The position numbers were made by a program, and so were the translations under genes. From the IMG/VR virus record IMGVR_UViG_3300046787_000129, positions 1 to 64,000 of that record: a stretch of 64,000 nucleotides of DNA; one strand, given 5' to 3'. This DNA comes from a virus. The notes below the pieces were generated by a model. It saw nothing but the letters and a program-made list of their open reading frames with translations. It had not been told where the DNA came from and did no database searches. Of the stretch, positions 4,791 to 18,905 are shown piece by piece; the first letter of the stretch is position 1; the number at the start of each line of letters is the position of its first letter.

Positions 4791-5592
4791 GCTATCCAGG
4801 ATATGTCTGATATAACACCATATAAGGCTACAGGAGACCTCAGAGATATACACCATACCCAATGAACAGGTTAATGTTATACCCCCTCAGATTGGCACAC
4901 AGGGCTATTTAGACTATGTTTTATAGATAGTTATCCACAGATATGTCTTACTGTTGTTGATAACTTATCTCATTAAGAGATGTTGGGAAATGAAGTATGG
5001 GTAATTATGCACACTATATCGTAAATGTCAAGCTTTTTGCATAATATTCTGTCTAGCCCCATGTTTTCCGCATGATCTTCTGTTGATATATATGCCCATA
5101 TATTATTGATAATAATTCTCATTAACATATATCTTTTGGGGAAATATATGCCCATTCGTAATCCTTTTTAATATAAACATATATAAAATATGGGCAAATA
5201 AAAACCCCTATCGTAATGTATTATTACTAGGGGTATATTTACTACTAGGGAGTGTTCTTATATCAAGAGATGATCTATCTACCCTGGCCTTTGGCCACAA
5301 GCAAAGCTTGTATATATCTTTATATTAACAGTGTTATAGATCTGGGGGATTTAAAGATAGGATCGTAATCCCTATAGGTAGTATATACAATACATCTTTG
5401 ATCTCTTACGATCGTTTAGCTCAATAAACAATCGTATGGAAACATGTAAAGAAAAAGCCATATATTTTACATATCAAGCTGACGTGTAAAGTATATAGCG
5501 TTTATTTGTTATATCTTATACTAGGGATTATAGAGCTTGATCGTAAATACCCCCAACTTCTGGGATTTTTTAGAGTCCTTCGTAATGTCCTA

Positions 5593-5621
5593 TTGACAAA
5601 TGGGTTATTCTTTGTTATAAT
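5593..5621 (+). promoter_or_regulatory. consensus sigma-A promoter facing the early genes (antisense)
   Basis: TTGACA-N17-TATAAT with extended TG. Confidence 0.7.
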
Positions 5622-5677
5622 ACGATTGGGTCGGCCATGCCCTGCCCCCTCCGAAGAGGGGACAGAGACTGTTTATC

Positions 5678-5950
5678 TTATTGCTCTGATGACTCTAGCA
5701 AATCGTCTAGCGTTTCAAAGCCTGTATCCTCATCAACCTCTAGACCCTCTAGCAAAAGGGCAAAGGTTTCTTCGATAAAGGCAGTAGCAACAGGCGTAGT
5801 AACAACAATGTCATTTGCGATAGCATAGGCAAGTGGCAAGCCAATGTCGTTGTATTCAATGAAGTCAGCAAACTCTACATCTTGACGATAGTTTAGCCAT
5901 AGGTCAGCAAGAATACTTGCCTTATCTTGAAAAGTGGTTGGTTCGCTCAT
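5678..5950 (-). CDS. acidic hypothetical protein
   Basis: 90 aa; followed by GC hairpin 5643-5667. Confidence 0.75.
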   Translation of the reverse strand: MSEPTTFQDKASILADLWLNYRQDVEFADFIEYNDIGLPLAYAIANDIVVTTPVATAFIEETFALLLEGLEVDEDTGFETLDDLLESSEQ

Positions 5951-6128
5951 TTATTCTTTCCTGTTCTGCTATGGCACTTTCGGTGACAATCAGCAATCTG
6001 TTGTAGTGGATAGGGGGTTTCATTTGTGCTAGGTAAAAACCTACATCATCTAAGTTTACATCAACTGGGCTAATGATTTCGGCAATCTTACTCGCAATCT
6101 TTTCTTCTCTAACGGTTGTTCGTTTCAT
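5922..6128 (-). CDS. hypothetical protein
   Basis: 68 aa; AAGGA RBS; TTGACT-N17-TACAAT promoter upstream. Confidence 0.7.
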   Translation of the reverse strand: MKRTTVREEKIASKIAEIISPVDVNLDDVGFYLAQMKPPIHYNRLLIVTESAIAEQERINERTNHFSR

Positions 6129-6171
6129 AGTGTTCCTTATTTAGTTGTATGCTTATTGTATCAAGTTTAGA

Positions 6172-6270
6172 GGGGGAAGTCAAGACCCAATTTCTCAACT
6201 TCCCCCAGTGGTACCACCAGAAACCCAAAACCAGTGGTACCGTTGGCAAGGAGTAATCTCAACCCACCAA
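6172..6270 (-). ncRNA. candidate three-hairpin antisense RNA with UUGGGU loops
   Basis: Three consecutive stems; G-U pairs extend the stems only on the - strand; loops AAUUGGG(U) and UUUUGGGUUU. Confidence 0.5.
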
Positions 6271-6280
6271 GTATATTAAA

Positions 6281-6670
6281 TTAAATAATTATCTCTTCAG
6301 CCATGGATACCCACCAGTTTGGTTCTGGTAGGACGTCGTCAACATTAATAGTTTTAATAAGGCTAGCGATACGTGGTGGAGCAAAAGCTAGGAAGTTCTC
6401 TGCAAAGTCCCACCAGTCTGAACCATACTCATCCTGTGGATAGTGCTCTGCAATGAGCGCTGTCTCTTCAGGGGTGCATTCGATAAGCAATGGCGTCTCA
6501 TACTTCCTTGTGCCCCTTGCGTCCTCTACGTATACATAAGGGTCAATGGTAAGGGTAGTGGCCCAAGTGGTCCCATTCTCTGCATACCAGTCTGACTCTT
6601 CAGTCCAGTCCGCTTCTTCAGTATAGATTTCACGGTAGAAGATGTTAAGATCGATAGTCTTACTAGACAT
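6281..6670 (-). CDS. acidic hypothetical protein
   Basis: ORF 6281..6712; probable start MSSKTID. Confidence 0.7.
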   Translation of the reverse strand: MSSKTIDLNIFYREIYTEEADWTEESDWYAENGTTWATTLTIDPYVYVEDARGTRKYETPLLIECTPEETALIAEHYPQDEYGSDWWDFAENFLAFAPPRIASLIKTINVDDVLPEPNWWVSMAEEIII

Positions 6671-6932
6671 ACCATAGCCCTTCCTTATCAGTGTCGTGGC
6701 CATCGCAACCACAGCAGTTCAAACAAAACTCTTGCTGGTCTGGACATTTGAATACGTCCATGATTACTTCACTGTCTGAAGTTAGATAAACCTGACAGTC
6801 ATCACATACTTCCACTTCAGTCTCGTCCAGTAGTTGGAAGACCTCATTAGATTCTACGTGACGATACATCTTCTCGATAATCTCAGACTGCCAGTCATCG
6901 TCAACTAGCAGGGTGTACTTGGTTACCTTCAT
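6663..6932 (-). CDS. Cys-rich hypothetical protein
   Basis: CDDC...C...CLNCCGC..H. Confidence 0.7.
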   Translation of the reverse strand: MKVTKYTLLVDDDWQSEIIEKMYRHVESNEVFQLLDETEVEVCDDCQVYLTSDSEVIMDVFKCPDQQEFCLNCCGCDGHDTDKEGLWYV

Positions 6933-7318
6933 TTACATCCCTCGTGTCCACAGCAGTTGTTACAGGTGTATTCCATGTCGTCTTCTTGGCAAGCATAAGC
7001 GTCATCATTGAAAGGATTATCACATACCTCGCAAGTTTCGATGTAGAGGTCAACCTCGTAGTCAGTATCTGGCTCGAAAGGAATCTCAGTTACATAGTAG
7101 CCTAGGCGATTTACAAAGTGATAGCCTTCGCTGATTACAAAGCCGTAATCAATCTGTGAATAAGTCCAGATGGTGTTTTCTGGGGCAGAGCGAACAAAGT
7201 CCAACTCTTCACCATAAGTCTCATACATAAAGTTATCTGGTTGCTTACTAATACTATTCTTGATTGGTTTGAACTGTTCCTCAAACTCTGACCAAGTTAG
7301 TGATACTCTTTTAGACAT
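6929..7318 (-). CDS. hypothetical protein with C-terminal Zn finger
   Basis: Start MSKRVSL after AAGGA-ACCCA; GYHFVNRLGY; CEVC...CNNCCGH. Confidence 0.75.
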   Translation of the reverse strand: MSKRVSLTWSEFEEQFKPIKNSISKQPDNFMYETYGEELDFVRSAPENTIWTYSQIDYGFVISEGYHFVNRLGYYVTEIPFEPDTDYEVDLYIETCEVCDNPFNDDAYACQEDDMEYTCNNCCGHEGCK

Positions 7319-7332
7319 TGGGTTATCCTTTT

Positions 7333-7842
7333 TTAGAAGTGGAAGTCTACAGGTATAAGATACCATGAATCATTGAGATTGTCAAGGGTATATTTAGGAT
7401 TAGTTGTAGCATTATGCATATCGTAGAAGTAGGCATTATAATTCCATGCCCCTTGGAACATCTCAATCATCATATTCAGTTCATACAACTCAAACGAGTA
7501 ATCTGTGTTACCGTCATACTTATCTAGATAGTTATTGATATCAATATTCTTCTCTTGGAAACGTGAGCGGTATCCAGCAAACTCAACCTTACGATTACTA
7601 ATCATTCTATCAATCATAGCCACATACTCATCAGGCTTCTTTGCATAACTAATAATATGATTAGGGCTAGACTGATAAGGGTCACCGTCTACAAATCTAC
7701 CGCCACCGATAACAAACCAGTCATACCAAGCATTGGTTGCGTATTCGTTTCCGCCTAGTTCACTGTTCAAAGTATCTTCAACAGTTCGCATAGCCATATC
7801 TTCGTCGTCTGCTTGAACTGCGATGTATTGCAAAACGTGCAT
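7333..7842 (-). CDS. phage hypothetical protein
   Basis: WYDWFVIGGGR...VDFHF. Confidence 0.75.
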   Translation of the reverse strand: MHVLQYIAVQADDEDMAMRTVEDTLNSELGGNEYATNAWYDWFVIGGGRFVDGDPYQSSPNHIISYAKKPDEYVAMIDRMISNRKVEFAGYRSRFQEKNIDINNYLDKYDGNTDYSFELYELNMMIEMFQGAWNYNAYFYDMHNATTNPKYTLDNLNDSWYLIPVDFHF

Positions 7843-7884
7843 TGGGTTTCCGTTCTTTGGGTATGTATCTATTATGACAGGTGG

Positions 7885-8220
7885 TTACTCATTTGTCAAG
7901 TCTTTTAGCAAAAAACCTGGGAAAGAATAATCTGTATCCTGATAGGTAACAATGCCACCAGGGAAATCTACAACGATAGGGTCATAGGATTCTTCGCCAC
8001 ATTCGTAACTAGATAGACCATAGCCAGTTTCACTATTCCAATCGTTGCCAATCAGCTGCGAGACAACGATACGCATAGCATAAGATGTGTCACCCCAGCG
8101 TGGTTCAGCTTTTGCGAGGGCAGATTGAAGGTCCGTAATCTTGCTATCTCCACCCCAGTGTGAATACAACCATACACTGCCTTTAGAGTCTCGTAATTCA
8201 AAGTTAGTACGTGCTCCCAT
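7885..8220 (-). CDS. phage hypothetical protein (LYSHWGG motif)
   Basis: 111 aa, AAGGAG RBS. Confidence 0.75.
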   Translation of the reverse strand: MGARTNFELRDSKGSVWLYSHWGGDSKITDLQSALAKAEPRWGDTSYAMRIVVSQLIGNDWNSETGYGLSSYECGEESYDPIVVDFPGGIVTYQDTDYSFPGFLLKDLTNE

Positions 8221-8387
8221 GGGGAACTCCTTATTGGGTTAGGGTTTATTTGATTACTACTACGTTACCACGGATTCGGGGAAAAGTCAAGCCTATCTTA
8301 ATAAGTATTTTATAGTTAATAGTATTAGTTAGAAAGAGGCCGACCACAGATCCCCTCCGCTGTCAAGCGGAGAGGTCTGCGTGTCTG

Positions 8388-9395
8388 CTATGCCATAGCG
8401 ACTTGCTGAACAATCTTTAGCAAGCGGTTCTTCTCGGCGTTCACCATTGGGTCAAAGCCTGAAGCACTAGCAAGGATAGACTCGTTAGAGCCACCTCGTC
8501 CGTTACGATACCAGTCAAGACGCTCAGTTAGTCCGTTCAAAGCACCCCAAGCAGTTCCAGCAATCATGCCGTTTTGGTTGCCACGATAGATAGACTGGAT
8601 TAGGTCAATCTTGCCATCATACTTCTTCTGTGAACCCTTAGCGTCCTTGTCTGGGGCAGGGTAGGCAAGAGCAACAATCTCGTCAAACTGACGCTCAGTG
8701 ATAGTCTTTTCAATCATAGCCTGTGCCATCTTGTCAAACTCGTCCATGTATTTGTTAGCCAAGCCAAGAGCCTCACGAGCAACCGCAATCTTACCCTCTG
8801 CGGTCTGGGTGTGGCGAATCTTGAAAGACTGCTTAGGACCTTTTCGGTTAGCACCAAGAGCAAGGTTTAGAGTGTTAGCACATACAACACGAACAGGGGT
8901 AATGCTTGCCTGAATAGCAACAGAGCCATCATGGCTAGTGTTGATTAGCAGATAGGTGTTGATTTTGTCACTAACGCCAGTAGGGTCTAGGACAGTCTCA
9001 CGCTCAAGAGCAAGCGAACCGAATACCTGACGCCCTCCCTTGATAGAGCCAGCAGTCTCCCAGCGTCCTCCGCCATCTAGAATGTTGTCACCAAAGGCGA
9101 ACAAGTCCTCGTTCTGAAGAACCTTGTAACGCTCACCAACAACGCCAAGAATGTCGTTCTCGTCCTTGTTGAATGGGTTAGTTCGGGTAACGAATGAGTA
9201 GGTCTTGTCTGAGTTGAAACCATCAGGGGTAGCAACATCTTCTAGACGAACATTCCAGTTATCTAGGTGTGCCAATGATAGCATTTTCTGAGTAGTGACT
9301 TCTTCGGTAAAGACTGTTCCAAGTCCATGCCATGCTGGCTCTCGCAATGAAGCGAAAGCGGTCTGTCCATCTACTGATTCTAGTTCGTGAGCCAT
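8388..9395 (-). CDS. DUF932 (TIGR03299-like phage/plasmid) protein
   Basis: MAHELE...PAWHGLG...ETAGS..GG...SHDGS.....TPVRVVCANTL...RHT signature. Confidence 0.9.
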   Translation of the reverse strand: MAHELESVDGQTAFASLREPAWHGLGTVFTEEVTTQKMLSLAHLDNWNVRLEDVATPDGFNSDKTYSFVTRTNPFNKDENDILGVVGERYKVLQNEDLFAFGDNILDGGGRWETAGSIKGGRQVFGSLALERETVLDPTGVSDKINTYLLINTSHDGSVAIQASITPVRVVCANTLNLALGANRKGPKQSFKIRHTQTAEGKIAVAREALGLANKYMDEFDKMAQAMIEKTITERQFDEIVALAYPAPDKDAKGSQKKYDGKIDLIQSIYRGNQNGMIAGTAWGALNGLTERLDWYRNGRGGSNESILASASGFDPMVNAEKNRLLKIVQQVAMA

Positions 9396-9550
9396 AAGAG
9401 ACTTCTTTCTTTAGTGGGTTATCTTGATGTATAACTAGATTACCAAAGAAACTAGTGTTTGTCAAGACTATTTAGCAAAATATTTTGGCGTGTCTTAAAG
9501 CTTATCGTAACTTGATCAGGAATAAAGGGGGCAGGGGCCGACCCCAAAAG

Positions 9551-9578
9551 GGAGCAGTTTATCAACTTGCTCAGGTTG
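9551..9578 (-). ncRNA. H-type pseudoknot motif, copy 1
   Basis: CAAC-CUGAGCAA-GUUG-AU-AAAC-UGCUC directly after a stop codon. Confidence 0.55.
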
Positions 9579-9585
9579 TTTGTTA

Positions 9586-10029
9586 CTAGGCTTCGTTACA
9601 GTAGATTGGGTCTGTCGTGTAGTCCAGAATCGTGTGGCTGTAAGAATCAATGCTCACATCAATGTCGCTCTCAATGTCAGCGGTATCAGGACCATCTTCA
9701 CCAAAAGGAACTTCAATGTCAATGTTGATAGTAACATTCAACTCATACGACTTGGTAGTTGTAAGGTCAATCTCTGCCTGCTCTGCGATGTTCTTGATAG
9801 TGTCAATGTCACCGTCAAGTTCATCTGCTACATACTGAAGAACCTTGCGAATCTTTAGTTCATAGTTAGCCTTAGCAGAACGCAACTCAAAGTGCTGTGA
9901 ACGTGCTTCTTCAAGTTGCTTAGTTAGTTTATCAATGTTCTCTTGCTTGGCAATAGCCTCTGACTCTAGTAGAGCGATACGACCTGCGATTGATGGGTGG
10001 TCTAGAACTGACATTTCTTCTTCTTTCAT
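9586..10029 (-). CDS. coiled-coil hypothetical protein
   Basis: 147 aa ORF. Confidence 0.75.
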   Translation of the reverse strand: MKEEEMSVLDHPSIAGRIALLESEAIAKQENIDKLTKQLEEARSQHFELRSAKANYELKIRKVLQYVADELDGDIDTIKNIAEQAEIDLTTTKSYELNVTINIDIEVPFGEDGPDTADIESDIDVSIDSYSHTILDYTTDPIYCNEA

Positions 10030-10187
10030 TAGAGGGCTTTTCTTAGTGCTTCTAGTCTATCAATGACCTCAGACAATAACTCTCGGTAGTCACTTGCTCT
10101 TAGGTCTTTGTTGTATGTTTCGTGGTAGTCCTTATCGAACTCGTCTGACCATTCCCGAAGGATAGCCCTTGCCTTACTCTTCCTCAT
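10029..10187 (-). CDS. small hypothetical protein (52 aa)
   Basis: MRKSKARAILREW...; read by hand. Confidence 0.5.
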   Translation of the reverse strand: MRKSKARAILREWSDEFDKDYHETYNKDLRASDYRELLSEVIDRLEALRKAL

Positions 10188-10353
10188 CTTCATCTTCCTC
10201 AGCGTCTTCCAATTCTGCTACCTCAATAGAATCGACAGCAAAATAGTTTAGATTCTCTTCCCAATCCCAACCCATAGACTCTGCTTCTTCCCTAGAGTCT
10301 GCTTCTACTTCTCCAACATACTCAATGGTAGTTGTTACTTCATACTTTGGCAT
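10174..10353 (-). CDS. small very acidic protein (59 aa)
   Basis: MPKYEVTTTIEYVGEVEADSREEAE...EDEDEEE. Confidence 0.65.
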   Translation of the reverse strand: MPKYEVTTTIEYVGEVEADSREEAESMGWDWEENLNYFAVDSIEVAELEDAEEDEDEEE

Positions 10354-10357
10354 TTAC

Positions 10358-10486
10358 TTATCCTAACATCATCATTTGGTATTGTAGCCAGTCGTCAAAC
10401 TCATACTGGCAGTCTTGGCATAGGGGGTGAACCGAGTCTACAGGGTCATAGTCTAGTGGTTCTTCACATTGGTAGCATTTATTCAT
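10358..10486 (-). CDS. small Zn-finger protein (42 aa), leaderless
   Basis: CYQC...CQDC; ATG 7 nt after -10. Confidence 0.6.
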   Translation of the reverse strand: MNKCYQCEEPLDYDPVDSVHPLCQDCQYEFDDWLQYQMMMLG

Positions 10487-10516
10487 AGTGTCTACTTTAG
10501 CATTACCCTCAGACAT

Positions 10517-10612
10517 TTAGTCCTCCATGTCATAGCAACGTTTACATTCTCCGAACCAAGTATCTGGTATCTGTGTTACCCCACAGGTCTTACACGTTAT
10601 TAGGTTAGACAT
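10517..10612 (-). CDS. small Zn-finger protein (31 aa)
   Basis: CKTC...CKRC. Confidence 0.55.
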   Translation of the reverse strand: MSNLITCKTCGVTQIPDTWFGECKRCYDMED

Positions 10613-10816
10613 TTAGCCCTCTACAATCCTAAACTCATACCCATTATCGCCATCTTGCTTTGCCTCTTCAAACTCTGACTCTTTTGAAAAGTAGAAGAAG
10701 ATGTTATCATCATCCTCGTCTAGAGAGTTCCACTCACCGTCAAGTGAAACGGTAGTTGCGTATTGAACTCCAGGTTCATCGTGCCATTCAATAACGACAT
10801 CCCTATACTCAGCCAT
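10613..10816 (-). CDS. acidic hypothetical protein
   Basis: DDNIFFYF motif; probable start MAEYR. Confidence 0.65.
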   Translation of the reverse strand: MAEYRDVVIEWHDEPGVQYATTVSLDGEWNSLDEDDDNIFFYFSKESEFEEAKQDGDNGYEFRIVEG

Positions 10817-11040
10817 TAGCAATCTCCATTCGAATACAACTCACTTGGCACACCTAAGCGACCTAGGACAACTTCTCTACCTGCGATACTTCCCTCAAGA
10901 TAATCAACAAAACTATCATTGATGTCATACTGTTCCATCTCTAGGCGGTAGGCAACAATCTCAGAGATTAGCAACTCACATAACTCATCTAGGTTGCCAA
11001 TACCGTAGTCTGCGTTTCTGTCTAGAACAATCTTGCTCAT
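10816..11040 (-). CDS. hypothetical protein
   Basis: 74 aa, GAAAGGA RBS. Confidence 0.7.
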   Translation of the reverse strand: MSKIVLDRNADYGIGNLDELCELLISEIVAYRLEMEQYDINDSFVDYLEGSIAGREVVLGRLGVPSELYSNGDC

Positions 11041-11086
11041 TGGATTTCCTTTCGTTATGCTTCTATTGTAGGGGTAGGGTCAGACA

Positions 11087-11296
11087 TTATACATACTCGT
11101 CTAGATACTCTTGGATGTCCTCACCATTTAGGCAAGCAAGGGCAAAGATGATACGCTCTGAATCTGGCAGGGTAGATAGGATGTCCCACTGCTCATCAGT
11201 AAGAGCGTCAGTAGGGAAGATAACAATCTCCTCGTTCTGAGAGTATGAACCATCGTGAGCAACAAAAGCAACATCGTTCTGGTATTCGTATGACAT
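11087..11296 (-). CDS. acidic hypothetical protein
   Basis: Start MSYEYQ after AAGGAG. Confidence 0.7.
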   Translation of the reverse strand: MSYEYQNDVAFVAHDGSYSQNEEIVIFPTDALTDEQWDILSTLPDSERIIFALACLNGEDIQEYLDEYV

Positions 11297-11429
11297 GGGT
11301 TTCTCCTTTGTTTGATTACTATAACTATACAACTACCCTCAGACATTTAAGGGATTTCGTACGGCGTGTCTTAAAGCTTTTGAATAAAGGGTGGCAGGGG
11401 TCGGCCCTTTTTGATCAGCTGTCAAGGTA

Positions 11430-11585
11430 AAAGAAAACCCCCTAGCAGTATGGAGGGATTTCCTCTATTATGTCTAGGGAGTTCTATTTCGCCAAGAGTC
11501 CTTGCGGTTATTCCTGACTTGCTATTTTTATCGTGTTTGCCATCACGCCTGTAAGCCGTTGCCTAGGACACTTACAGGAGGCTTG
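11430..11585 (-). ncRNA. candidate structured RNA ending in a terminator
   Basis: CCUGUAAG/CUUACAGG, CGUG/CACG, CC-GCAA-GG and CCCUAG/CUAGGG stems then U-run; no ORF. Confidence 0.35.
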
Positions 11586-11590
11586 GTTAG

Positions 11591-11622
11591 TGAGCAGTTT
11601 ACCTAGACTTGCTCAGGTCTTA
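11591..11622 (-). ncRNA. H-type pseudoknot motif, copy 2
   Basis: AGAC-CUGAGCAA-GUCU-AGGU-AAAC-UGCUCA after a stop codon. Confidence 0.55.
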
Positions 11623-11632
11623 GTTCATCTTA

Positions 11633-12076
11633 TTAGATTAGGTCAATGACCGAAGAATAAGACGAGGCTGATACTTCCTCTTGGAGAGTCATACGAAGAA
11701 TACGCAGGTTCTTCTCAAGGATTTCCTTGCGAGTAGTGTATTCACGACCAAAGTAGGTCTTGTCGTTTGGCTTTGCTGGCTCAGTTGGTCGCTCTGGGAA
11801 ACCTAGTGCCTGAGAGTCAAAGTCTACTGAGATACCGCCACGGTAGTTAGTAGAGATACGGATAGGAGAGTTGCTATCAGTTCCAAGATTGCTTGGGTCA
11901 CTAATAGCCTCAATAACCTTTGCGGATAGGGAAGCCTCGAAAGCCTTTACCTGTTCCTTGTAAGCCTTGTATTCGTCAGCGTATGAGGCAACAGCGTTGT
12001 CAATCTTTGCGATAGACGCTTCAATGTCTGCGATTAGAGTTGATACTGGGATTTTTACTGAGATAGCACGAGCCAT
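11633..12076 (-). CDS. hypothetical protein (147 aa)
   Basis: Start MARAISV after ACCCA box. Confidence 0.75.
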   Translation of the reverse strand: MARAISVKIPVSTLIADIEASIAKIDNAVASYADEYKAYKEQVKAFEASLSAKVIEAISDPSNLGTDSNSPIRISTNYRGGISVDFDSQALGFPERPTEPAKPNDKTYFGREYTTRKEILEKNLRILRMTLQEEVSASSYSSVIDLI

Positions 12077-12213
12077 TGGGTGACTACTTTCTTTATTGGG
12101 TTTATTTGTTATTACAAGTTTAGCATAGGGGTTATACATTTGTCAAGGGGCAAACAGTTTCTAGATTTGCTTACCCCTCGACAAAGGGATTAGTTTACGC
12201 TTTCCATAGGCGG

Positions 12214-12250
12214 TGAGCAGTTATTTTCACAAAGACATACTCAGGTCTTT
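12214..12250 (-). ncRNA. H-type pseudoknot motif, copy 3
   Basis: AAAGAC-CUGAGUAU-GUCUUU...AAC-UGCUCA after a stop codon. Confidence 0.5.
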
Positions 12251-12267
12251 TCCCAACTGAATGGGTA

Positions 12268-12423
12268 TTAGTTGTCTGCCTTTACAGTAGACCAACGAGG
12301 TGAACCATTTACATCAAGACGAACTCGGAACGAGCCGTTCTGGTTCTTTACAACTTCCTGAATGACACCTGACACGCCAGACTTAGCGGTGGTGAACTGT
12401 GAGCCAACAGTTAGAGCGTTCAT
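12268..12423 (-). CDS. small beta-barrel (SH3/KOW-like) protein, 51 aa
   Basis: MNALTVGSQFTTAKSGVSGVIQEVVKNQNGSFRVRLDVNGSPRWSTVKADN; fold is inferred. Confidence 0.65.
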   Translation of the reverse strand: MNALTVGSQFTTAKSGVSGVIQEVVKNQNGSFRVRLDVNGSPRWSTVKADN

Positions 12424-12781
12424 AGTTTTGCTTCTTTCTTTAGGGGTGATTTGTTTACTTATCTATTATGACACAAGGAGTAGAGAATGTCAAGCACATT
12501 TGATAACTAAATGATAACAACATTTCTTTTTTTATTCTTGGTGTTTAGTTCTCGTTTCCTTGTATTACTATTATGGGGCATAACGGTATGTTTGTCAAGT
12601 TGAAAGTGCCTTTTTTTATTGTGGGTTTTCACAAAGTTTGGGGAAAATCTTTGTCTATCTTAAACTTGACAAAAGCTGATCTTGGGGGTCGGCCCCCTTT
12701 CGGGGGACTTGTCAAGTCACTGATTGATTAGGAAGAATGCTAGAAATAGAATCCCGATGATAGATAGTTCTAGGATAGGCA

Positions 12782-13303
12782 TTACTCTGCAGACCCCCTA
12801 ACAACAATCCAGATTAGCGCCTGCATTGCACGTGGCGTCATTCCATACTTAGTTGCAACGGTAGTTACAGCGTCTGCCATAACCTTATACTGACCTTGGG
12901 TAGGCGTCTTCTTTTCGATACCTAATGCACGTAACATCCATACGTCAATAACTACAGCGTCTTCATTACCTGCAATAGCCTTAGCGAATGCATTAGTCTT
13001 CTGACCCTTTAGCGCTTCGAATCCCTTATCGAATGCAGCGTTAGCCATACGAATGTTATTGCCTAGCGCAACTACAGTCTCACCTAGGCTAAACTTGATA
13101 GCGTTAGTAACGTTACGTGCCCAACGTTCACGTGGGCTGAATGCTGATACGATAGTTGCCCCAACTTCAAGGGTAACGTCAAGGTTACGTGCAACCTCTT
13201 CTGCAACACGCTCTGCGTCAAGATACCATTTCGACGCTTGTTCAACCTGACCGAATGTTGCACGGCTTGCAAGTTCTGAATAAATCTCTACATAGTTAGT
13301 CAT
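12782..13303 (-). CDS. DUF7178-like phage protein (HhH-glycosylase-like fold suspected)
   Basis: WY..A.........A.I.SA.SPR..W..N ... K...F ... VVIDVWM ... QA..W pattern. Confidence 0.65.
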   Translation of the reverse strand: MTNYVEIYSELASRATFGQVEQASKWYLDAERVAEEVARNLDVTLEVGATIVSAFSPRERWARNVTNAIKFSLGETVVALGNNIRMANAAFDKGFEALKGQKTNAFAKAIAGNEDAVVIDVWMLRALGIEKKTPTQGQYKVMADAVTTVATKYGMTPRAMQALIWIVVRGSAE

Positions 13304-13358
13304 TGGGTGACTCTTTCTTTTGGGTTATTGGATTATGAAAATAATACTAACAGACTTA

Positions 13359-13573
13359 TTAGATAAAGTCAAATACATCGCCATCGAATCCGCCAATATC
13401 TAAGTCTGCCATTAGTTCACTAGGCGTGATCTCACCTTCGGCCATCATTGCGAATAGCTCTCTTACGTACTCTTCATCCATTATTTCACCTTCTCAAGAA
13501 TAGCGGCTAGTTGCCTAAGTTGTTCGGGGGTAAGGTTATTGATAACCTCATTATTGATTACATCTTCAAACAT
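13359..13573 (-). CDS. two coupled microproteins (13481-13573, 30 aa; 13359-13481, 40 aa)
   Basis: Read by hand; overlapping stop/start. Confidence 0.5.
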
Positions 13574-13781
13574 TACATGCCCAATCCCCTGCGTCATGGA
13601 AATAGCGTTCAACATCTGACCACGCCGTTTCACCCTTGAAATACTTTGTCTTACCGTCTAACACGGTCTTGTAGTAACCATGAAAGTTACTAGCATACCA
13701 TACCGTTCCATAGTCACTAGAATAAACTTCATCCCATGAACTAACTTCGGATACTTTAGTCTGTCGGGTTACAAACTGCAT
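13566..13781 (-). CDS. hypothetical protein
   Basis: 71 aa, AAGGAG RBS; KYFKGETAWSD. Confidence 0.7.
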   Translation of the reverse strand: MQFVTRQTKVSEVSSWDEVYSSDYGTVWYASNFHGYYKTVLDGKTKYFKGETAWSDVERYFHDAGDWACNV

Positions 13782-13821
13782 TTTGGCTCCTTTAGGTTAT
13801 AGAATAAGGTTAGCAGATTAG

Positions 13822-13992
13822 TTACTCATTGTCAAGGGCTTCACGCAATTTTGTTTGGCGTGTCCCCTTGTATTTCTTGGGGGTAATGACTTTAGCCTTA
13901 CCTTCCTTTAGCATAGACTGAAATAACGCTTGGCTCTCTGCCTTGCGAATAGCCTCGTTTACTTTACCTAATGGCTTCATCTTCTTCTTCAT
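13822..13992 (-). CDS. small basic protein (56 aa), leaderless
   Basis: MKKKMKPLGK...KKYKGTR; ATG 6 nt after -10. Confidence 0.6.
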   Translation of the reverse strand: MKKKMKPLGKVNEAIRKAESQALFQSMLKEGKAKVITPKKYKGTRQTKLREALDNE

Positions 13993-14132
13993 AGTTATAC
14001 ATTACCATTACCCTCAGACATTTAACCAGCTTTCGGGGAAATATTTTATCTATCTTAATTGACTTGACATTTGGTAAGAAAAGGGCCGACCAGATCCAGG
14101 AGCTTTTGTCAAGTCCCCAGTCTGGCGTGTCG

Positions 14133-14297
14133 CTATTCGTTTACGGCTTCAGTGAATCTCTTAGAGTCAAAGCGTGGGTTATCCTTCTTGAATAGTTCAA
14201 TGAACGAGTCTAGCAGATAGCCAGTATCTAGGTTCTCATCATTCTCGAAAGCGTTTAGGATTCTGGCTACCTCTACATAGTCTTTACGGGTCATCAT
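14133..14297 (-). CDS. small phage protein (MTRKDY...DNPRFD..RF type)
   Basis: 54 aa read by hand. Confidence 0.65.
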   Translation of the reverse strand: MMTRKDYVEVARILNAFENDENLDTGYLLDSFIELFKKDNPRFDSKRFTEAVNE

Positions 14298-14299
14298 TA

Positions 14300-14476
14300 T
14301 TAGTTGCCTCGGTTTTCTGCTAGGCGTAGGATAAACTGGGCAGTCTTTAGGTCAACTGCGGCTGACGCATAGCCAACCATTGTGGCTAGGGCTAGGTCAT
14401 TACGGTCACCAAACTCTGCCTTTAGAATAGCAAGAGCCTTGTCCATTAGTTCTAGTGAGTTCTTTTCCATTTTCAT
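14300..14476 (-). CDS. hypothetical protein
   Basis: Probable start MKMEKNS; the upstream extension in the ORF track is promoter sequence. Confidence 0.65.
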   Translation of the reverse strand: MKMEKNSLELMDKALAILKAEFGDRNDLALATMVGYASAAVDLKTAQFILRLAENRGN

Positions 14477-14521
14477 TTCCTGTTCTTTAGATGTTTTTAG
14501 TTTAGCAGTAGGGTCAGACAT

Positions 14522-14641
14522 TTAGCGTCTGAACACCTCTGCCTCTGGGTGGTCTGTTAGAAAATCCGACATGTCTAGGGTGTGGACAGCGGTAACGGCG
14601 GTGGTGCCTAGCACGTTGGTGAAGGTCATTAGAGTGTACAT
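14522..14641 (-). CDS. microprotein (39 aa)
   Basis: GAAAGG RBS, own promoter. Confidence 0.55.
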   Translation of the reverse strand: MYTLMTFTNVLGTTAVTAVHTLDMSDFLTDHPEAEVFRR

Positions 14642-14694
14642 TTTGTACCTTTCGTTTTTGTTTATGTATTTAGATTAGCATGTGGGTCAGACAT

Positions 14695-14844
14695 TTATTC
14701 TTCGTCTAGCAGATACTCTAGGAAATCATAGGCTTCGACAGCCTCGACAATGGTCATTAGACCTTTATAGTCGTTACACTCAGGGCAGACCATAACGCTT
14801 TCTGGGTATAGATTTTCACAGTAGACACAAACGTTCTTGAACAT
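14695..14844 (-). CDS. Zn-ribbon microprotein (49 aa)
   Basis: CVYC...CPEC; GAGGT RBS. Confidence 0.65.
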   Translation of the reverse strand: MFKNVCVYCENLYPESVMVCPECNDYKGLMTIVEAVEAYDFLEYLLDEE

Positions 14845-15002
14845 TTATTACCTCTTTCTTTGTTACTATAAATCTAGCATAGGGGTCAGACATTTAACCC
14901 CCGATCTTTCTAGGAATCTTAGAACGTTATCTTAACGTTACGTAAATAGTTATTAACAGAGTTATCCACAGGGCCGACCACACCCGAAGGTGTTTGTCAA
15001 GT

Positions 15003-15263
15003 CTACTCCTGAAAGAAGCTTGGGGGATTGTCATCCCAGTCTGGCTCAGAGTAGTTAGGGTCGTTCTCGAAACGGAAGAATTCTTCGGTGGTGCAGTTGT
15101 GGTCATCCATGGTTATCTCCATTCGTTAGGGTCAAAGTCGAAAGGGCTATAGGCATCTGAGCCACAGCCACAGCAAGGGCGGTCTTCGCAATCACACATT
15201 TGGGTCTCCTTCTGATAGAAAGTCTTGGATGTCTTCATCTGTAAAATCACCGTATCTAGCCAT
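15003..15263 (-). CDS. three coupled microproteins (15192-15263, 15113-15199 with CEDRPCCGC, 15003-15110)
   Basis: Read by hand; the first is leaderless, the others follow GGAG. Confidence 0.5.
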
Positions 15264-15421
15264 GTGATAAATCTAACACACATGTCAGACATTTACAAAT
15301 CCAACACGCCGCTTTCGGGGATTCTGTGGATCGATCTTAACTAACGTAACTTGACAAAAGTGGGTCCAGGGGCCGACTTTTTTAGCTGATTTGTCAAATC
15401 GACACGCCGATAAAAAGTGGA

Positions 15422-15517
15422 TTATTTTTCTGGGGTAGCGATAGCGGTTTCTAGGGTAACAATTCCAGCAATAGCCTTATCAAACTCTTCCCAAGTGTCA
15501 AAAGTAAGTTCAATCAT
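15422..15517 (-). CDS. microprotein (31 aa)
   Basis: MIELTFDTWEEFDKAIA... Confidence 0.5.
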   Translation of the reverse strand: MIELTFDTWEEFDKAIAGIVTLETAIATPEK

Positions 15518-15520
15518 TCT

Positions 15521-15712
15521 CTAAGCCTTTCCAATGATGTTTTCGTTGTAGTAGCGAACAACCTCGCCAACAGCCTTAGTCCCGTATACTCGGATAACTC
15601 GCTGATACTCGTCAGAGGCTTCTTTTATCTCTCGGTTATCGTTGCCCATTGAAGCAACGTGGTAGTTAGAAACTACCTTGTAAATCTCATCAGTAATCTG
15701 ACCTAGGTTCAT
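15521..15712 (-). CDS. hypothetical protein
   Basis: Probable start MNLGQ. Confidence 0.6.
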   Translation of the reverse strand: MNLGQITDEIYKVVSNYHVASMGNDNREIKEASDEYQRVIRVYGTKAVGEVVRYYNENIIGKA

Positions 15713-15763
15713 TTCATTTCTCATTTCTTTTGTTACTAACAGTCTAGGGGTTGGGTCAGACAA

Positions 15764-15880
15764 TTAGGCTGTTACACCGTATTGTGCTACGCAAGACTCG
15801 CAAGCCTTTTCGTTGTTGTAGAGGTTACCCTCGCAGATTACACAGTGTCCTGTTGCTACATTTACCTTTAGTGAGTTCAT
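15764..15880 (-). CDS. Zn-finger microprotein (38 aa)
   Basis: CVIC...CESC; AAGGAG RBS. Confidence 0.6.
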   Translation of the reverse strand: MNSLKVNVATGHCVICEGNLYNNEKACESCVAQYGVTA

Positions 15881-16456
15881 CTTGAACTCCTTTCTTTTTT
15901 ATTTCTTTTTCTTTATCTATATATATTTAAACATACATTATGCGATTTGTCAAGTCTATTTGGTAACAAACTTATAACGGTTTTTTTAGAGATATCATAC
16001 AAGACTTATCCACAGAGTTATCCACAGGGCCGACCCCTTTCGGGATCGTTTGTCAAGCTGACACGCCGTGTCCTAGAGAAATAAGAAGGCCATCACGAAA
16101 CTTGAAAATGTCTTCTTCGCTTAGGTGCTTTAGAAAAAAGGTGTTGTGGTATTTGCGAATAAATAGAAGGGCACAATCAAGGCAATTGCTACTGCCAAGG
16201 CAACCGCACATTAGTTTCCCCTAGTGCGGTATAGGCTAACAAAAGCGGTAATGGCAAAAGCAACCATTACAATCTGAAGGATAGAGGTTGCTAGGCGTGT
16301 GATGTCCATTAGGGTTACTCGCTTTCTGGGGTAGTGAATAGGTCTGAAGGGTTAGATAGCATTAGGTCAATCTTGAAGATTAGTTCTTCTAGTTCTTGGG
16401 TAGTCATTTTTGTTACCTTTCTTGATTACTTAGATTCTATTACAGGGGTCAGACAA

Positions 16457-16651
16457 TTAGGCGTTCGGGCCATACCAGATACGGACAACCAAAGCGGTAG
16501 CAAAGCCAAAGAACACTAGCCCAGCGATGAACGCTACTGAAGCCATCTCATAGATACCATCTAGACATAGGTCAATAGAGAATGCCATTAGGGTGAAGAA
16601 TACGGTTGAAGCGAATAGGAGGATGAAGTTCTGGATTGAGTAACGAGACAT
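16457..16651 (-). CDS. two-TM membrane protein
   Basis: Two hydrophobic segments. Confidence 0.65.
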   Translation of the reverse strand: MSRYSIQNFILLFASTVFFTLMAFSIDLCLDGIYEMASVAFIAGLVFFGFATALVVRIWYGPNA

Positions 16652-16710
16652 TTTCTGTTCTTTCTTTTAGGTTATGTATTTATCTTAGTATGTGCCTAGG
16701 ACATTGTCAA

Positions 16711-16845
16711 CTAGGATAGGGTCTCAATCATCACGATTGTGTAACCCTGAGCCTCTAGGTTCTTGACTACTGTTTCTTCCATTGAAGCAGGGTAAGCAGC
16801 AGAGGTTAGTGGGCTTGTTGGGTGAGTCATTGTGATTCTTAGCAT
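16711..16845 (-). CDS. microprotein (44 aa), first gene of the leftward region
   Basis: MLRITMTHP...; own promoter 16877-16905. Confidence 0.55.
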   Translation of the reverse strand: MLRITMTHPTSPLTSAAYPASMEETVVKNLEAQGYTIVMIETLS

Positions 16846-17104
16846 TTGTATTTCTTCTTTCTTTCTTTATACCTAAAGCCTATACCCTACCTAGGACATT
16901 GTCAATACGACACGCCGATAAATGGGAAAGTTTTTTAACAATCTTAGATAGTTATCCACAGAGTTATCCACAGGGCCGACCCCATGGGTCGCCATTTGTC
17001 AAGCCTATTTAGATAACGATTAGATAACAAACAATGTGATCGAGATCGCCCATATTGTCGGGGGTATCTGATAGGCTATACCCATATAGAGAAAGGTACC
17101 ACAC

Positions 17105-17223: not shown

Positions 17224-17347
17224 CGTTATGAATCTGTTACAAAAAGATTTCCGACACGCCGTGTATGGATTTGACAAATGCTTAGTTATCTGATTAACTA
17301 TAGGTAGATAAATAAATAGTAAGTTTCAAAAAAGAAAGGACATTCAC

Positions 17348-18663: not shown

Positions 18664-18905
18664 GTTTCTATATTAGCACAAAGCTTTAAACTTTGCAAAC
18701 ATATATCCGCAAATCTTAAAACCATATTTAATAAAATCTTAAAACTATATTTATATATTTCTACCTATGTGAATGCTTGCATTCAAAGTGTAGATGGTTA
18801 CTCTTATTCCGCCGAATTTTTCGCCGCTTCTTTTTGTTCCATTTTGCGAACTTATCCACATAGTTATCCACAGGTGTTTAAATATTCATTTATAATTGTA
18901 CTATT

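Follow-up and report, generated by a model that had tools for sequence, protein, structure and literature searches.

What fills the place of the -10 hexamer at the gene boundaries of an early phage region when the -35 hexamer before it is perfect? The question is raised by IMG/VR virus record IMGVR_UViG_3300046787_000129, of which positions 1 to 64,000 (64,000 nucleotides [nt], hereafter the window) were analysed. Between its early genes a G/C-rich box, GGYCGRCC, recurs at promoter-like distances from TTGACA. We find that this box is part of a composite intergenic linker made of a hairpin, often a sigma-A -35 hexamer, and the box itself. The linker is a real, conserved and, as far as full-text searches and the BE1 genome paper show, unpublished cis-element, and it is family-wide.

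A GC box in the -10 slot of intergenic linkers

Exact GGYCGRCC sites number nine in the window (5629, 8338, 9536, 11399, 12687, 14084, 14972, 16028 and 16974) against 0.72 expected, a count that 0 of 100 shuffles attained, so the recurrence claimed in the original prediction is firm. The whole 109,629-base-pair (bp) virus record has no further copy, and all nine fall within 5.6-17 kb. Every one is GGCCGACC or its complement; the symmetric forms GGCCGGCC and GGTCGACC never occur in the record. A tenth site, at 15371, carries the variant box AGTCGGCC. The combined pattern TTGACA-N15-19-YCGRCC gave 10 matches against 0.08 expected, and its reversed-pattern control gave 0 in the genome.

The spacings and flanks that had been predicted for these sites were recovered. 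On the - strand, TTGACA-N17-YCGRCC stands at 8338, 12687, 14084, 14972, 16028 and 16974, with N15 at 11399 and 15371. A second TTGACA on the + strand (12666, 14064 and 15351) faces boxes 12687, 14084 and 15371, and perfect DnaA boxes (TTATCCACA) adjoin 14972 (at 14962), 16028 (at 16006/16018) and 16974 (at 16952/16964). Ten elements with a perfect -35 had been proposed; a perfect - strand hexamer is present at eight of the ten, whereas 9536 has TTGATA instead, at N18 before YCGRCC, and no -35 was found on the - strand at 5629. The cTTGACAa context of the element -35 is the same as that of the -35 of canonical promoters.

A scan of IMG/VR for TTGACA-N15-19-GGTCGGCC returned single chance matches only, and relatives were therefore sought through the DUF932 protein encoded at 8388-9395. 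This matched 444 IMG/VR stretches, 443 of them encoding a relative of the DUF932 protein; 80 loci were fetched (L126-L205), which together with the window gave 139 distinct TTGACA-N~15-GC-box sites. The linkers lie 3-70 nt past the stop codon that ends the preceding gene (at 11399, about 210 nt), and the -10 hexamer of the next real promoter lies 65-110 nt further on, a placement that agrees with the cassette-boundary role first suggested. Read on the sense strand, the order is hairpin (TTGACA forms its loop or immediately precedes it), in many cases the words AAGCT and GATC, and the GC box; then the mirror arm TGTCAAG, two DnaA boxes or another sequence; then TTACGA/TTAAGA words and the promoter. 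The window elements, with the promoter that faces the first of them, are as follows.

5593..5621, + strand: perfect consensus promoter TTGACA-N17-TATAAT facing the end of the early array; a GC box starts 7 nt after its -10.
5629..5665, - strand: element 1, array end; hairpin CTGTCCCCTC-TTCG-GAGGGGGCAG (5642-5665), then box GGCCGACC (5629-5636), without a - strand -35.
8338..8375, - strand: element 2, after the DUF932 gene; 9-bp hairpin (8367-8375 with 8352-8360) whose loop is TTGACA (8361-8366), then GATCTGT and box GGTCGGCC (8338-8345).
9536..9565, - strand: element 3; degenerate -35 TTGATA (9560-9565), N16, box GGTCGGCC.
11399..11425, - strand: element 4; TTGACA-N13-GGCCGACC, with AGCT and GATC in the spacer.
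12666..12715, both strands: element 5, two-armed; TTGACA 12710-12715 (-), N15, box 12687-12694, N15, TTGACA 12666-12671 (+); spacer hairpin CCCCC-GAAA-GGGGG.
14064..14112, both strands: element 6, two-armed; TTGACA 14107-14112 (-), N15, box 14084-14091, N14, TTGACA 14064-14069 (+).
14962..15000, - strand: element 7; TTGACA, hairpin ACACC-TTCG-GGTGT, box 14972-14979, DnaA box 14962-14970.
15351..15397, both strands: element 8, two-armed; variant box AGTCGGCC at 15371-15378, arms 15392-15397 (-) and 15351-15356 (+).
16006..16056, - strand: element 9; GGCGTGTC-N3-TTGACA, hairpin CGATCCC-GAAA-GGGGTCG, box 16028-16035, DnaA boxes 16018-16026 and 16006-16014.
16952..17002, - strand: element 10; TTGACA, hairpin CGACCC-ATG-GGGTCG overlapping box 16974-16981, DnaA boxes 16964-16972 and 16952-16960.

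Across the 139 elements the -10 slot holds no TAnnnT; YCGRCC or another GC box of 8-12 bp stands there instead, 14-15 bp past the -35 hexamer, and its start is in the register of TGG-TAnnnT in the canonical promoters of the same loci. In the window, 7 of the 8 core bases are G or C and the core is identical, whereas the sequence between arms and core is unconserved. About one-third of the sites have the symmetric form TTGACA-N15-box-N15-TGTCAA. Of 35 distinct two-armed sites, 34 have an inner distance of 36-39 bp from TTGACA to TGTCAA, with the box centred 14-15 bp from either arm, and the promoter geometry first seen in the window thus holds on both strands. The two-armed layout is that of a symmetric bidirectional promoter whose -10 zone has been replaced. 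Warman et al. in 2021 reportedly described such bacterial promoters with shared -10 zones; the likeness lies in two opposite-strand -35 hexamers flanking one central zone at promoter spacing, and the difference in that zone, which here is G/C-rich rather than TAnnnT / AnnnTA.

The hairpin is a true component of the linker. Mean folding energy around TTGACA in the 139 elements was -9.0 kcal/mol versus -5.8 for shuffles, as opposed to -3.9 versus -3.6 kcal/mol at 259 canonical promoters, with the sense strand favoured over the antisense strand by 0.9 kcal/mol (p = 0.006). The stem at the DUF932 site has undergone compensatory changes and reads CCTCTCCGC/GCGGAGGGG in the window, CTCCCTGGC/GCTGGGGAG in L155 and CCTCCTGGC/GCTGGGAGG in L143.

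Carriers, box types and purged restriction words

The DUF932 gene belongs to an early array of small - strand genes running from ~19.3 to 5 kb, whose promoters comprise many TTGACA-N17-TAnnnT and 15 TGTCTGAsss-N8-TAnnnT sites. A homologue with 57% amino-acid identity lies inside the ~11-kb direct terminal repeat of Streptomyces BE1 phages (PMC5764925), and the array is therefore the counterpart of a T5/SPO1-type terminal-repeat early module. Megablast gave no match among cultured phages, and Rfam none in 4.5-19.5 kb. The phage encodes DnaB, DnaG, Pol III alpha, RecA, NrdEF/NrdI and an M23 lysin and, outside the window, endonuclease VII (88661-89092, +) and a WhiB-family protein (92787-92963, +, 49 bits). 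Its NrdE is nearest to those of Actinomycetota, Candidatus Nanopelagicus among them; the host is therefore an actinobacterium, in support of which stands the WhiB gene. The carriers of the element are a large group of uncultured freshwater (lake) actinophages.

Within a genome the box is uniform, and between close syntenic relatives it differs at orthologous sites. GGCCGACC is found in the window, L143, L155, L194 and L166; GGTCGCCC and GGCCGCCC in L126-128, L130, L131, L137 and L154; GGCTCGCC in L132, L138 and L141; GGAGCGCC in L136, L139, L145 and L151; and other loci carry GCCTCGGG, GGGGGCCCC, GTGCCGACC and others. Since the regions are syntenic, orthologous boxes have changed in concert while the spacers stayed put. 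Box type is independent of DUF932 identity: L127, at 98%, has another box, and L143, at 79%, has the same one. Gene conversion was considered as a source of the uniformity and rejected, as spacers are orthologously conserved and differ between copies, and only the 8-mer shifts in concert.

The orientation of the box is equally labile. The orthologous DUF932 site carries GGTCGGCC in the window (8338) and in L155, and GGCCGACC in L143, in otherwise similar flanks; box orientations on the sense strand stand at 7:3 in the window and 3:6 in L143. A fixed polarity TTGACA>GGTCGGCC, apparent in the window, is broken by L143. Only the -35 arm keeps its orientation relative to transcription. A strand-specific -10 or an RNA motif is therefore excluded as the meaning of the box, and with it the idea that the box is read as a -10 on one strand.

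A simple rule relates the boxes to words that these phages avoid. In the whole genome of the window phage, several words are purged (observed versus expected): CCGG 0 versus 78, CGCG 1 versus 55, GCGC 11 versus 100, CCCGC 0 versus 23, GGGCCC 1 versus 8, CTCGAG 0 versus 4.8 and GCATGC 0 versus 7.7. The purged set varies by relative, with GGCC, GATC or AGCT at zero in different subsets. A palindrome whose four central bases are all G or C necessarily has CCGG, GGCC, GCGC or CGCG at its centre; such words being purged, one half-site is mutated, in either half, and an apparent flip results. Thus, the asymmetric or invertible core that the flipping had seemed to call for is unneeded, as a palindrome with one half-site mutated off a purged restriction word suffices.

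Type A boxes combine one GGCC half with one GGTC half at 32 of 32 sites. Type B boxes combine a GGGC half with a GGTC or GGCC half, with 3 exceptions in 50 (GGTCGACC in L128 and two type A sites in L154). Relatives that tolerate GCGC bear perfect GGGCGCCC (6 of 6 sites in L133 and 5 of 5 in L184), the GGCC-tolerant L144 and L153 have GGGGGCCCC, the CGCG-tolerant L150 has GGCGCGGCC, and the CCGG-tolerant L179, L189 and L197 have CCGG inside the box. Boxes containing GGCC, CGCG or CCGG occur solely in genomes that tolerate the respective word. Judged by their sequences, GGCTCGCC and GGAGCGCC appear to be single escapes from GGCGCGCC, and GTGCCGACC a type A box with its GGCC destroyed; more generally, the observed boxes can be read as one-step escapes from all-G/C palindromes. 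A symmetric reader that loses least when one half is altered would explain why the hetero form is constant, why orientation is random and why the boxes are uniform. The words GATC, GGCC and AGCT are 5- to 19-fold denser in linkers than in the remaining early region, which indicates that functional constraint retains them there against the purge.

Readings of the linker

The reading that we favour, and hold tentatively, is that hairpin and operator are combined in one linker, a disabled promoter whose -10 slot is taken up by a symmetric protein. Each site would be a composite linker between transcription units of the early small-gene array. Its RNA hairpin would close the upstream unit, the host sigma-A -35 hexamer would overlap the hairpin or just precede it, and the unmeltable GC box in the -10 slot would serve as operator for a dyad-symmetric, probably phage-encoded DNA-binding protein. 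The ideal operator would be an all-G/C palindrome (GG, then CCGG, GCGC, CGCG or GGCC, then CC), and the purge of those four-letter words by the phages would leave one half-site always mutated, the half being chosen at random. That the distance to the -35 is fixed, and often mirrored, suggests a side-by-side placement of RNA polymerase (by sigma region 4) and the bound protein. RNA polymerase may be docked and unable to open the DNA, and the site may insulate neighbouring cassettes or shut off transcription between them rather than start it.

Possible, but doubtful, is a mirror-symmetric pseudo-promoter in which a phage-protein operator forms the -10 zone and sigma-A RNA polymerase is held unopened at the -35 or at both -35s, as a trap or insulator or as a start that a second signal could switch on, the operator being continually reshaped by host restriction. 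If this holds, the box type of a phage would report the palindromes cut by its hosts. If docking does occur, the element would be a compact natural insulator built from a promoter with a non-meltable -10 slot.

Several observations weigh against an operator with docked polymerase. A scan of ~40 open reading frames yielded no DNA-binding domain that could belong to the reader, no early reading frame tracks box type, and Pfam and PHROGs scans for the reader gene were blank. The predicted fold of one candidate, a 56-residue basic early protein (13822-13992), is two helices and uninformative. The boxes of different lineages are very unlike one another (GGCTCGCC, GGAGCGCC, GCCTCGGG, GTGCCGACC), so that a base-specific reader must have changed often; a reader of shape or GC content would fit this variety between lineages, but not the uniformity within a genome. 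Restriction avoidance was rejected as the whole cause of the difference between window and L127, since the sub-words of the L127 box are not avoided in the window genome; the choice of GGCCGACC over the GGYCGCCC of L127 is not explained by avoidance alone. Closed RNA polymerase complexes, moreover, are usually weak roadblocks. Finally, L129 has 14 boxes without TTGACA, and in L133 the arms GACACGCCC/GGGCGTGTC replace the -35 arm. With several lineages lacking the -35 arm, RNA polymerase docking cannot be the core function family-wide. What the whole family shares is the hairpin with the box, to which some lineages have added a precisely spaced -35 arm.

The hairpin, whose loop is often GAAA or UUCG, might do the work at the RNA level by terminating or attenuating transcription or by stabilising 3' ends. 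The box would then be the G-run/C-run base or tip of the stem, or a polymerase-stalling GC block downstream, and TTGACA an overlapping relic of compaction, as in the promoter-early stem-loop (PeSL) cassettes of T4-type phages (Arbiol et al. 2010, PMC2839356; Comeau et al. 2014, PMC4122927). The significance of the hairpin, its greater stability on the sense strand and the position of the sites directly 3' of stop codons agree with this. U-tract terminator-like sites are not enriched in the array (14 versus 10.2 expected, one of them at a box), so something else must end transcripts. The 3' arm of the hairpin is in many cases formed by the G-run of the box, and PeSL stem-loops use polyG/polyC tracts too. 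The stem has the G/C hairpin of an intrinsic terminator, yet on its 3' side the GC box follows in place of a U-tract, and most boxes have no U-tract after them. A structural role requires no identical 8-mer at all sites of a genome, half of the window boxes are flanked by GG..CC only and so have no hairpin of their own, and from one genome to another the sense strand carries the box in either orientation at random. A canonical terminator precedes the element in L171 and L194, which places the element outside the transcript. Nor does this reading explain the mirror-symmetric spacing of 36-39 bp between -35 hexamers, and we regard a mainly RNA-level role as unlikely.

The spacing is accounted for if the sites are factor-dependent (middle-class) promoters, at which the -35 recruits sigma-A RNA polymerase and a box-bound phage protein, a nick or a modification replaces the -10, in both directions where there are two arms. 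On one strand or both, the distances match promoter spacing exactly, the box keeps the TGG / T(-12) register of canonical promoters, the site is private to the phage, which encodes a WhiB-type partner of sigma region 4, and DnaA boxes directly downstream would suit regulated starts. Even so, such promoters are distinctly improbable. No sequence is harder to melt than a G/C-rich box of 8-12 bp; recognition of a -10 depends on the strand, and the box is orientation-free. The lone arm is mostly co-directed with strong promoters 65-110 nt downstream, which would make a start redundant. The box is also kept in lineages without the -35 arm, and no sigma-like gene was found, a search of the phage genome having revealed no sigma region 2. 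A ParB N-terminal domain is likewise not encoded.

The mosaic state of the array invites a third explanation, that the linkers supply short homology for exchange, excision or insertion of ORFan cassettes in the PeSL manner, with the identical core as the place of crossover. Individual genes share 82-98% identity with one relative and are down to ~45% in others or missing from them, cassette order differs between window and L127 around 15-17 kb, PeSL elements provide a precedent, and the phage has RecA and endonuclease VII. Neither a tyrosine nor a serine recombinase (PF00589, PF00239) was found in the genome, however, and RecA needs more than 8 bp. Although the core is identical, its arms stand 14-15 bp off and do not abut it, unlike those of lox, att and attC sites, and a site-specific recombination core, as once proposed, is unlikely. 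Inverted boxes would invert genes, and orthologous sites are old and syntenic rather than recently moved. Synteny breakpoints had been named as a check; the few sharp identity borders that could be mapped fall at gene or promoter ends, none of them on boxes. We consider a recombination linker very improbable.

Least probable of all is a target for a sequence-specific enzyme (a T5-like programmed nick, base modification or restriction decoy) that reads the asymmetric 8-mer either way. An exact asymmetric 8-mer usable in both directions is what one expects of an enzyme recognition site, the module shares homology with terminal repeats of T5/SPO1-like layout, and GATC, AGCT and GGCC cluster in the linkers; but such a target needs neither a fixed 15-bp distance to a -35 nor mirror symmetry, the broken palindrome accounts for the asymmetry without an asymmetric reader, and ~70 frames compared with Pfam or PHROGs turned up no methyltransferase or nickase, methyltransferase families not having been searched by name.

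Other candidates were rejected. The box as the -10 of another sigma factor fails on its free orientation, the lack of a phage sigma region 2 and the absence of such a promoter class from 64 candidate hosts (Nanopelagicaceae-like and other actinobacterial genomes), where the pattern had 2 matches versus 8 for the reversed control. A G4-loop-C4 mini-hairpin is not the sole meaning of the box, half of the window boxes being only GG..CC-flanked and the 'loop' being the invariant part. An ECF-type antisense reading, with the box as -35 and TGTCAA as -10, was set aside, as it entails antisense transcripts at every site and there is no sigma gene. Ten dispersed sites without trio repeats are unlike an origin with a DnaA-trio, and the broad distance of 65-110 nt does not suit class-I activator geometry for the next promoter.

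Known systems and neighbouring features

Full-text searches yielded no published description of the element, and no mention of intergenic linkers was found in the BE1 genome paper (PMC5764925). The resemblance to PeSL cassettes noted in the original prediction is a fair one, in that hairpin and early-promoter parts lie between small open reading frames. Like PeSL cassettes, the linkers are composites that recur in the gaps between small early ORFan genes, in terminator-like position and mosaic neighbourhood, and both join a sigma-70-type -35 to a stem-loop, often polyG/polyC, over or between promoter boxes. PeSL elements differ in having a working -10 and in being proven strong promoters, whereas here a genome-specific GC box fills the -10 slot; the phage is an actinophage siphovirus of another host, and in its mosaic array the few borders that could be mapped lie off the boxes.

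The BE1 phage Peebs (MF347638) has a homologous module with the DUF932 gene and small - strand genes. Each gap there has a GGGCCC-UUCG-GGGCCC hairpin, the GC-rich quasi-palindrome TGTCGGGCCCGGACA and a downstream promoter. Peebs differs in that the arms of its palindrome, (G)TGTCGGGCCCGGACA(C), abut the core, in having no TTGACA at 15 bp and in not avoiding CCGG.

Stoperators of cluster A mycobacteriophages, the sites of L5 gp71 (GGTGGMTGTCAAG), contain the complement of CTTGACA. Like the conserved inverted repeats of phiC31, they are many short intergenic copies, uniform within a genome and differing between relatives, at which a phage repressor blocks transcription. Both systems offer functional precedents for operators that occur in many copies in the early regions of actinophages. 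These phages are temperate with a known repressor, and stoperators are asymmetric, in one orientation relative to transcription. The elements described here are likewise many near-identical intergenic copies that differ between related genomes, but each is a broken palindrome, in either orientation, 15 bp from a -35.

To our knowledge, the linkers of BE1 terminal repeats are undescribed in the literature, and we know of no description of transcription control in uncultured freshwater actinophages and their Streptomyces relatives. The element is a marker of regulatory grammar in the first-expressed (terminal-repeat-type) module of both the uncultured phages and the cultured Streptomyces relatives, and it offers a practical means of delimiting early cassettes in metagenomic phage contigs. 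Whatever the mechanism, the broken-palindrome rule is a case of restriction avoidance sculpting a functional cis-element, one in which the ideal operator and the host-cut palindromes can be read from sequence alone.

Further features accompany the linkers. At 5593-5680 (+) the perfect promoter fires against the end of the early array; its predicted transcript start is the GC box, and the transcript runs into the hairpin CCCCCTCCGAAGAGGGG. The product could be a short antisense RNA or a 63-codon frame (5637-5828). Among 556 canonical promoters checked, a promoter set against a box in this way occurs in this genome only.

Perfect DnaA boxes number eight, all on one strand (4931, 14962, 16006/16018, 16952/16964 and 18852/18864) and mostly in pairs 12 bp apart. 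Three pairs or singles adjoin a GC box, and the pair at 18852 and the single at 4931 have no neighbouring box. The 8-mer GGCGTGTC occurs in the window at 17253, 16909, 16060, 15401 and 12371, and GACACGCC at 14124, 13857, 11363 and 9487. This 8-mer, which contains GACAC, is found family-wide in both orientations beside linkers, either 3-4 nt upstream of TTGACA or as mirror arms around the box (L133).

The two-armed element at 14084 is closely followed on its downstream side by the gene for the 56-residue early protein (13822-13992, - strand), which is very basic (16 Lys+Arg), conserved in most relatives and without a family match; its two helices are predicted with a pLDDT of 77. Directly 3' of the DUF932 stop codon, many loci (L130:11014-11060 among them), though not the window, have a covarying H-type pseudoknot of the form S1-ct-AGGCA-a-S1'-(a)aaac-TGCCT, with no Rfam match. 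Stem 1 is ACGTG/CACGT, AGAC/GTCT, ACTC/GAGT or CTG/CAG, and stem 2 is AGGCA/TGCCT, GGGCA/TGCCC or GAGCA/TGCTC. The 15 TGTCTGAsss-N8-TAnnnT promoters lie on the - strand at 10054-16455 (14871-14892 and 11324-11345, for example), often without a good -35; in relatives the TGTCTGAsss-N8 spacer lies within TTGACA-N17-TAnnnT.

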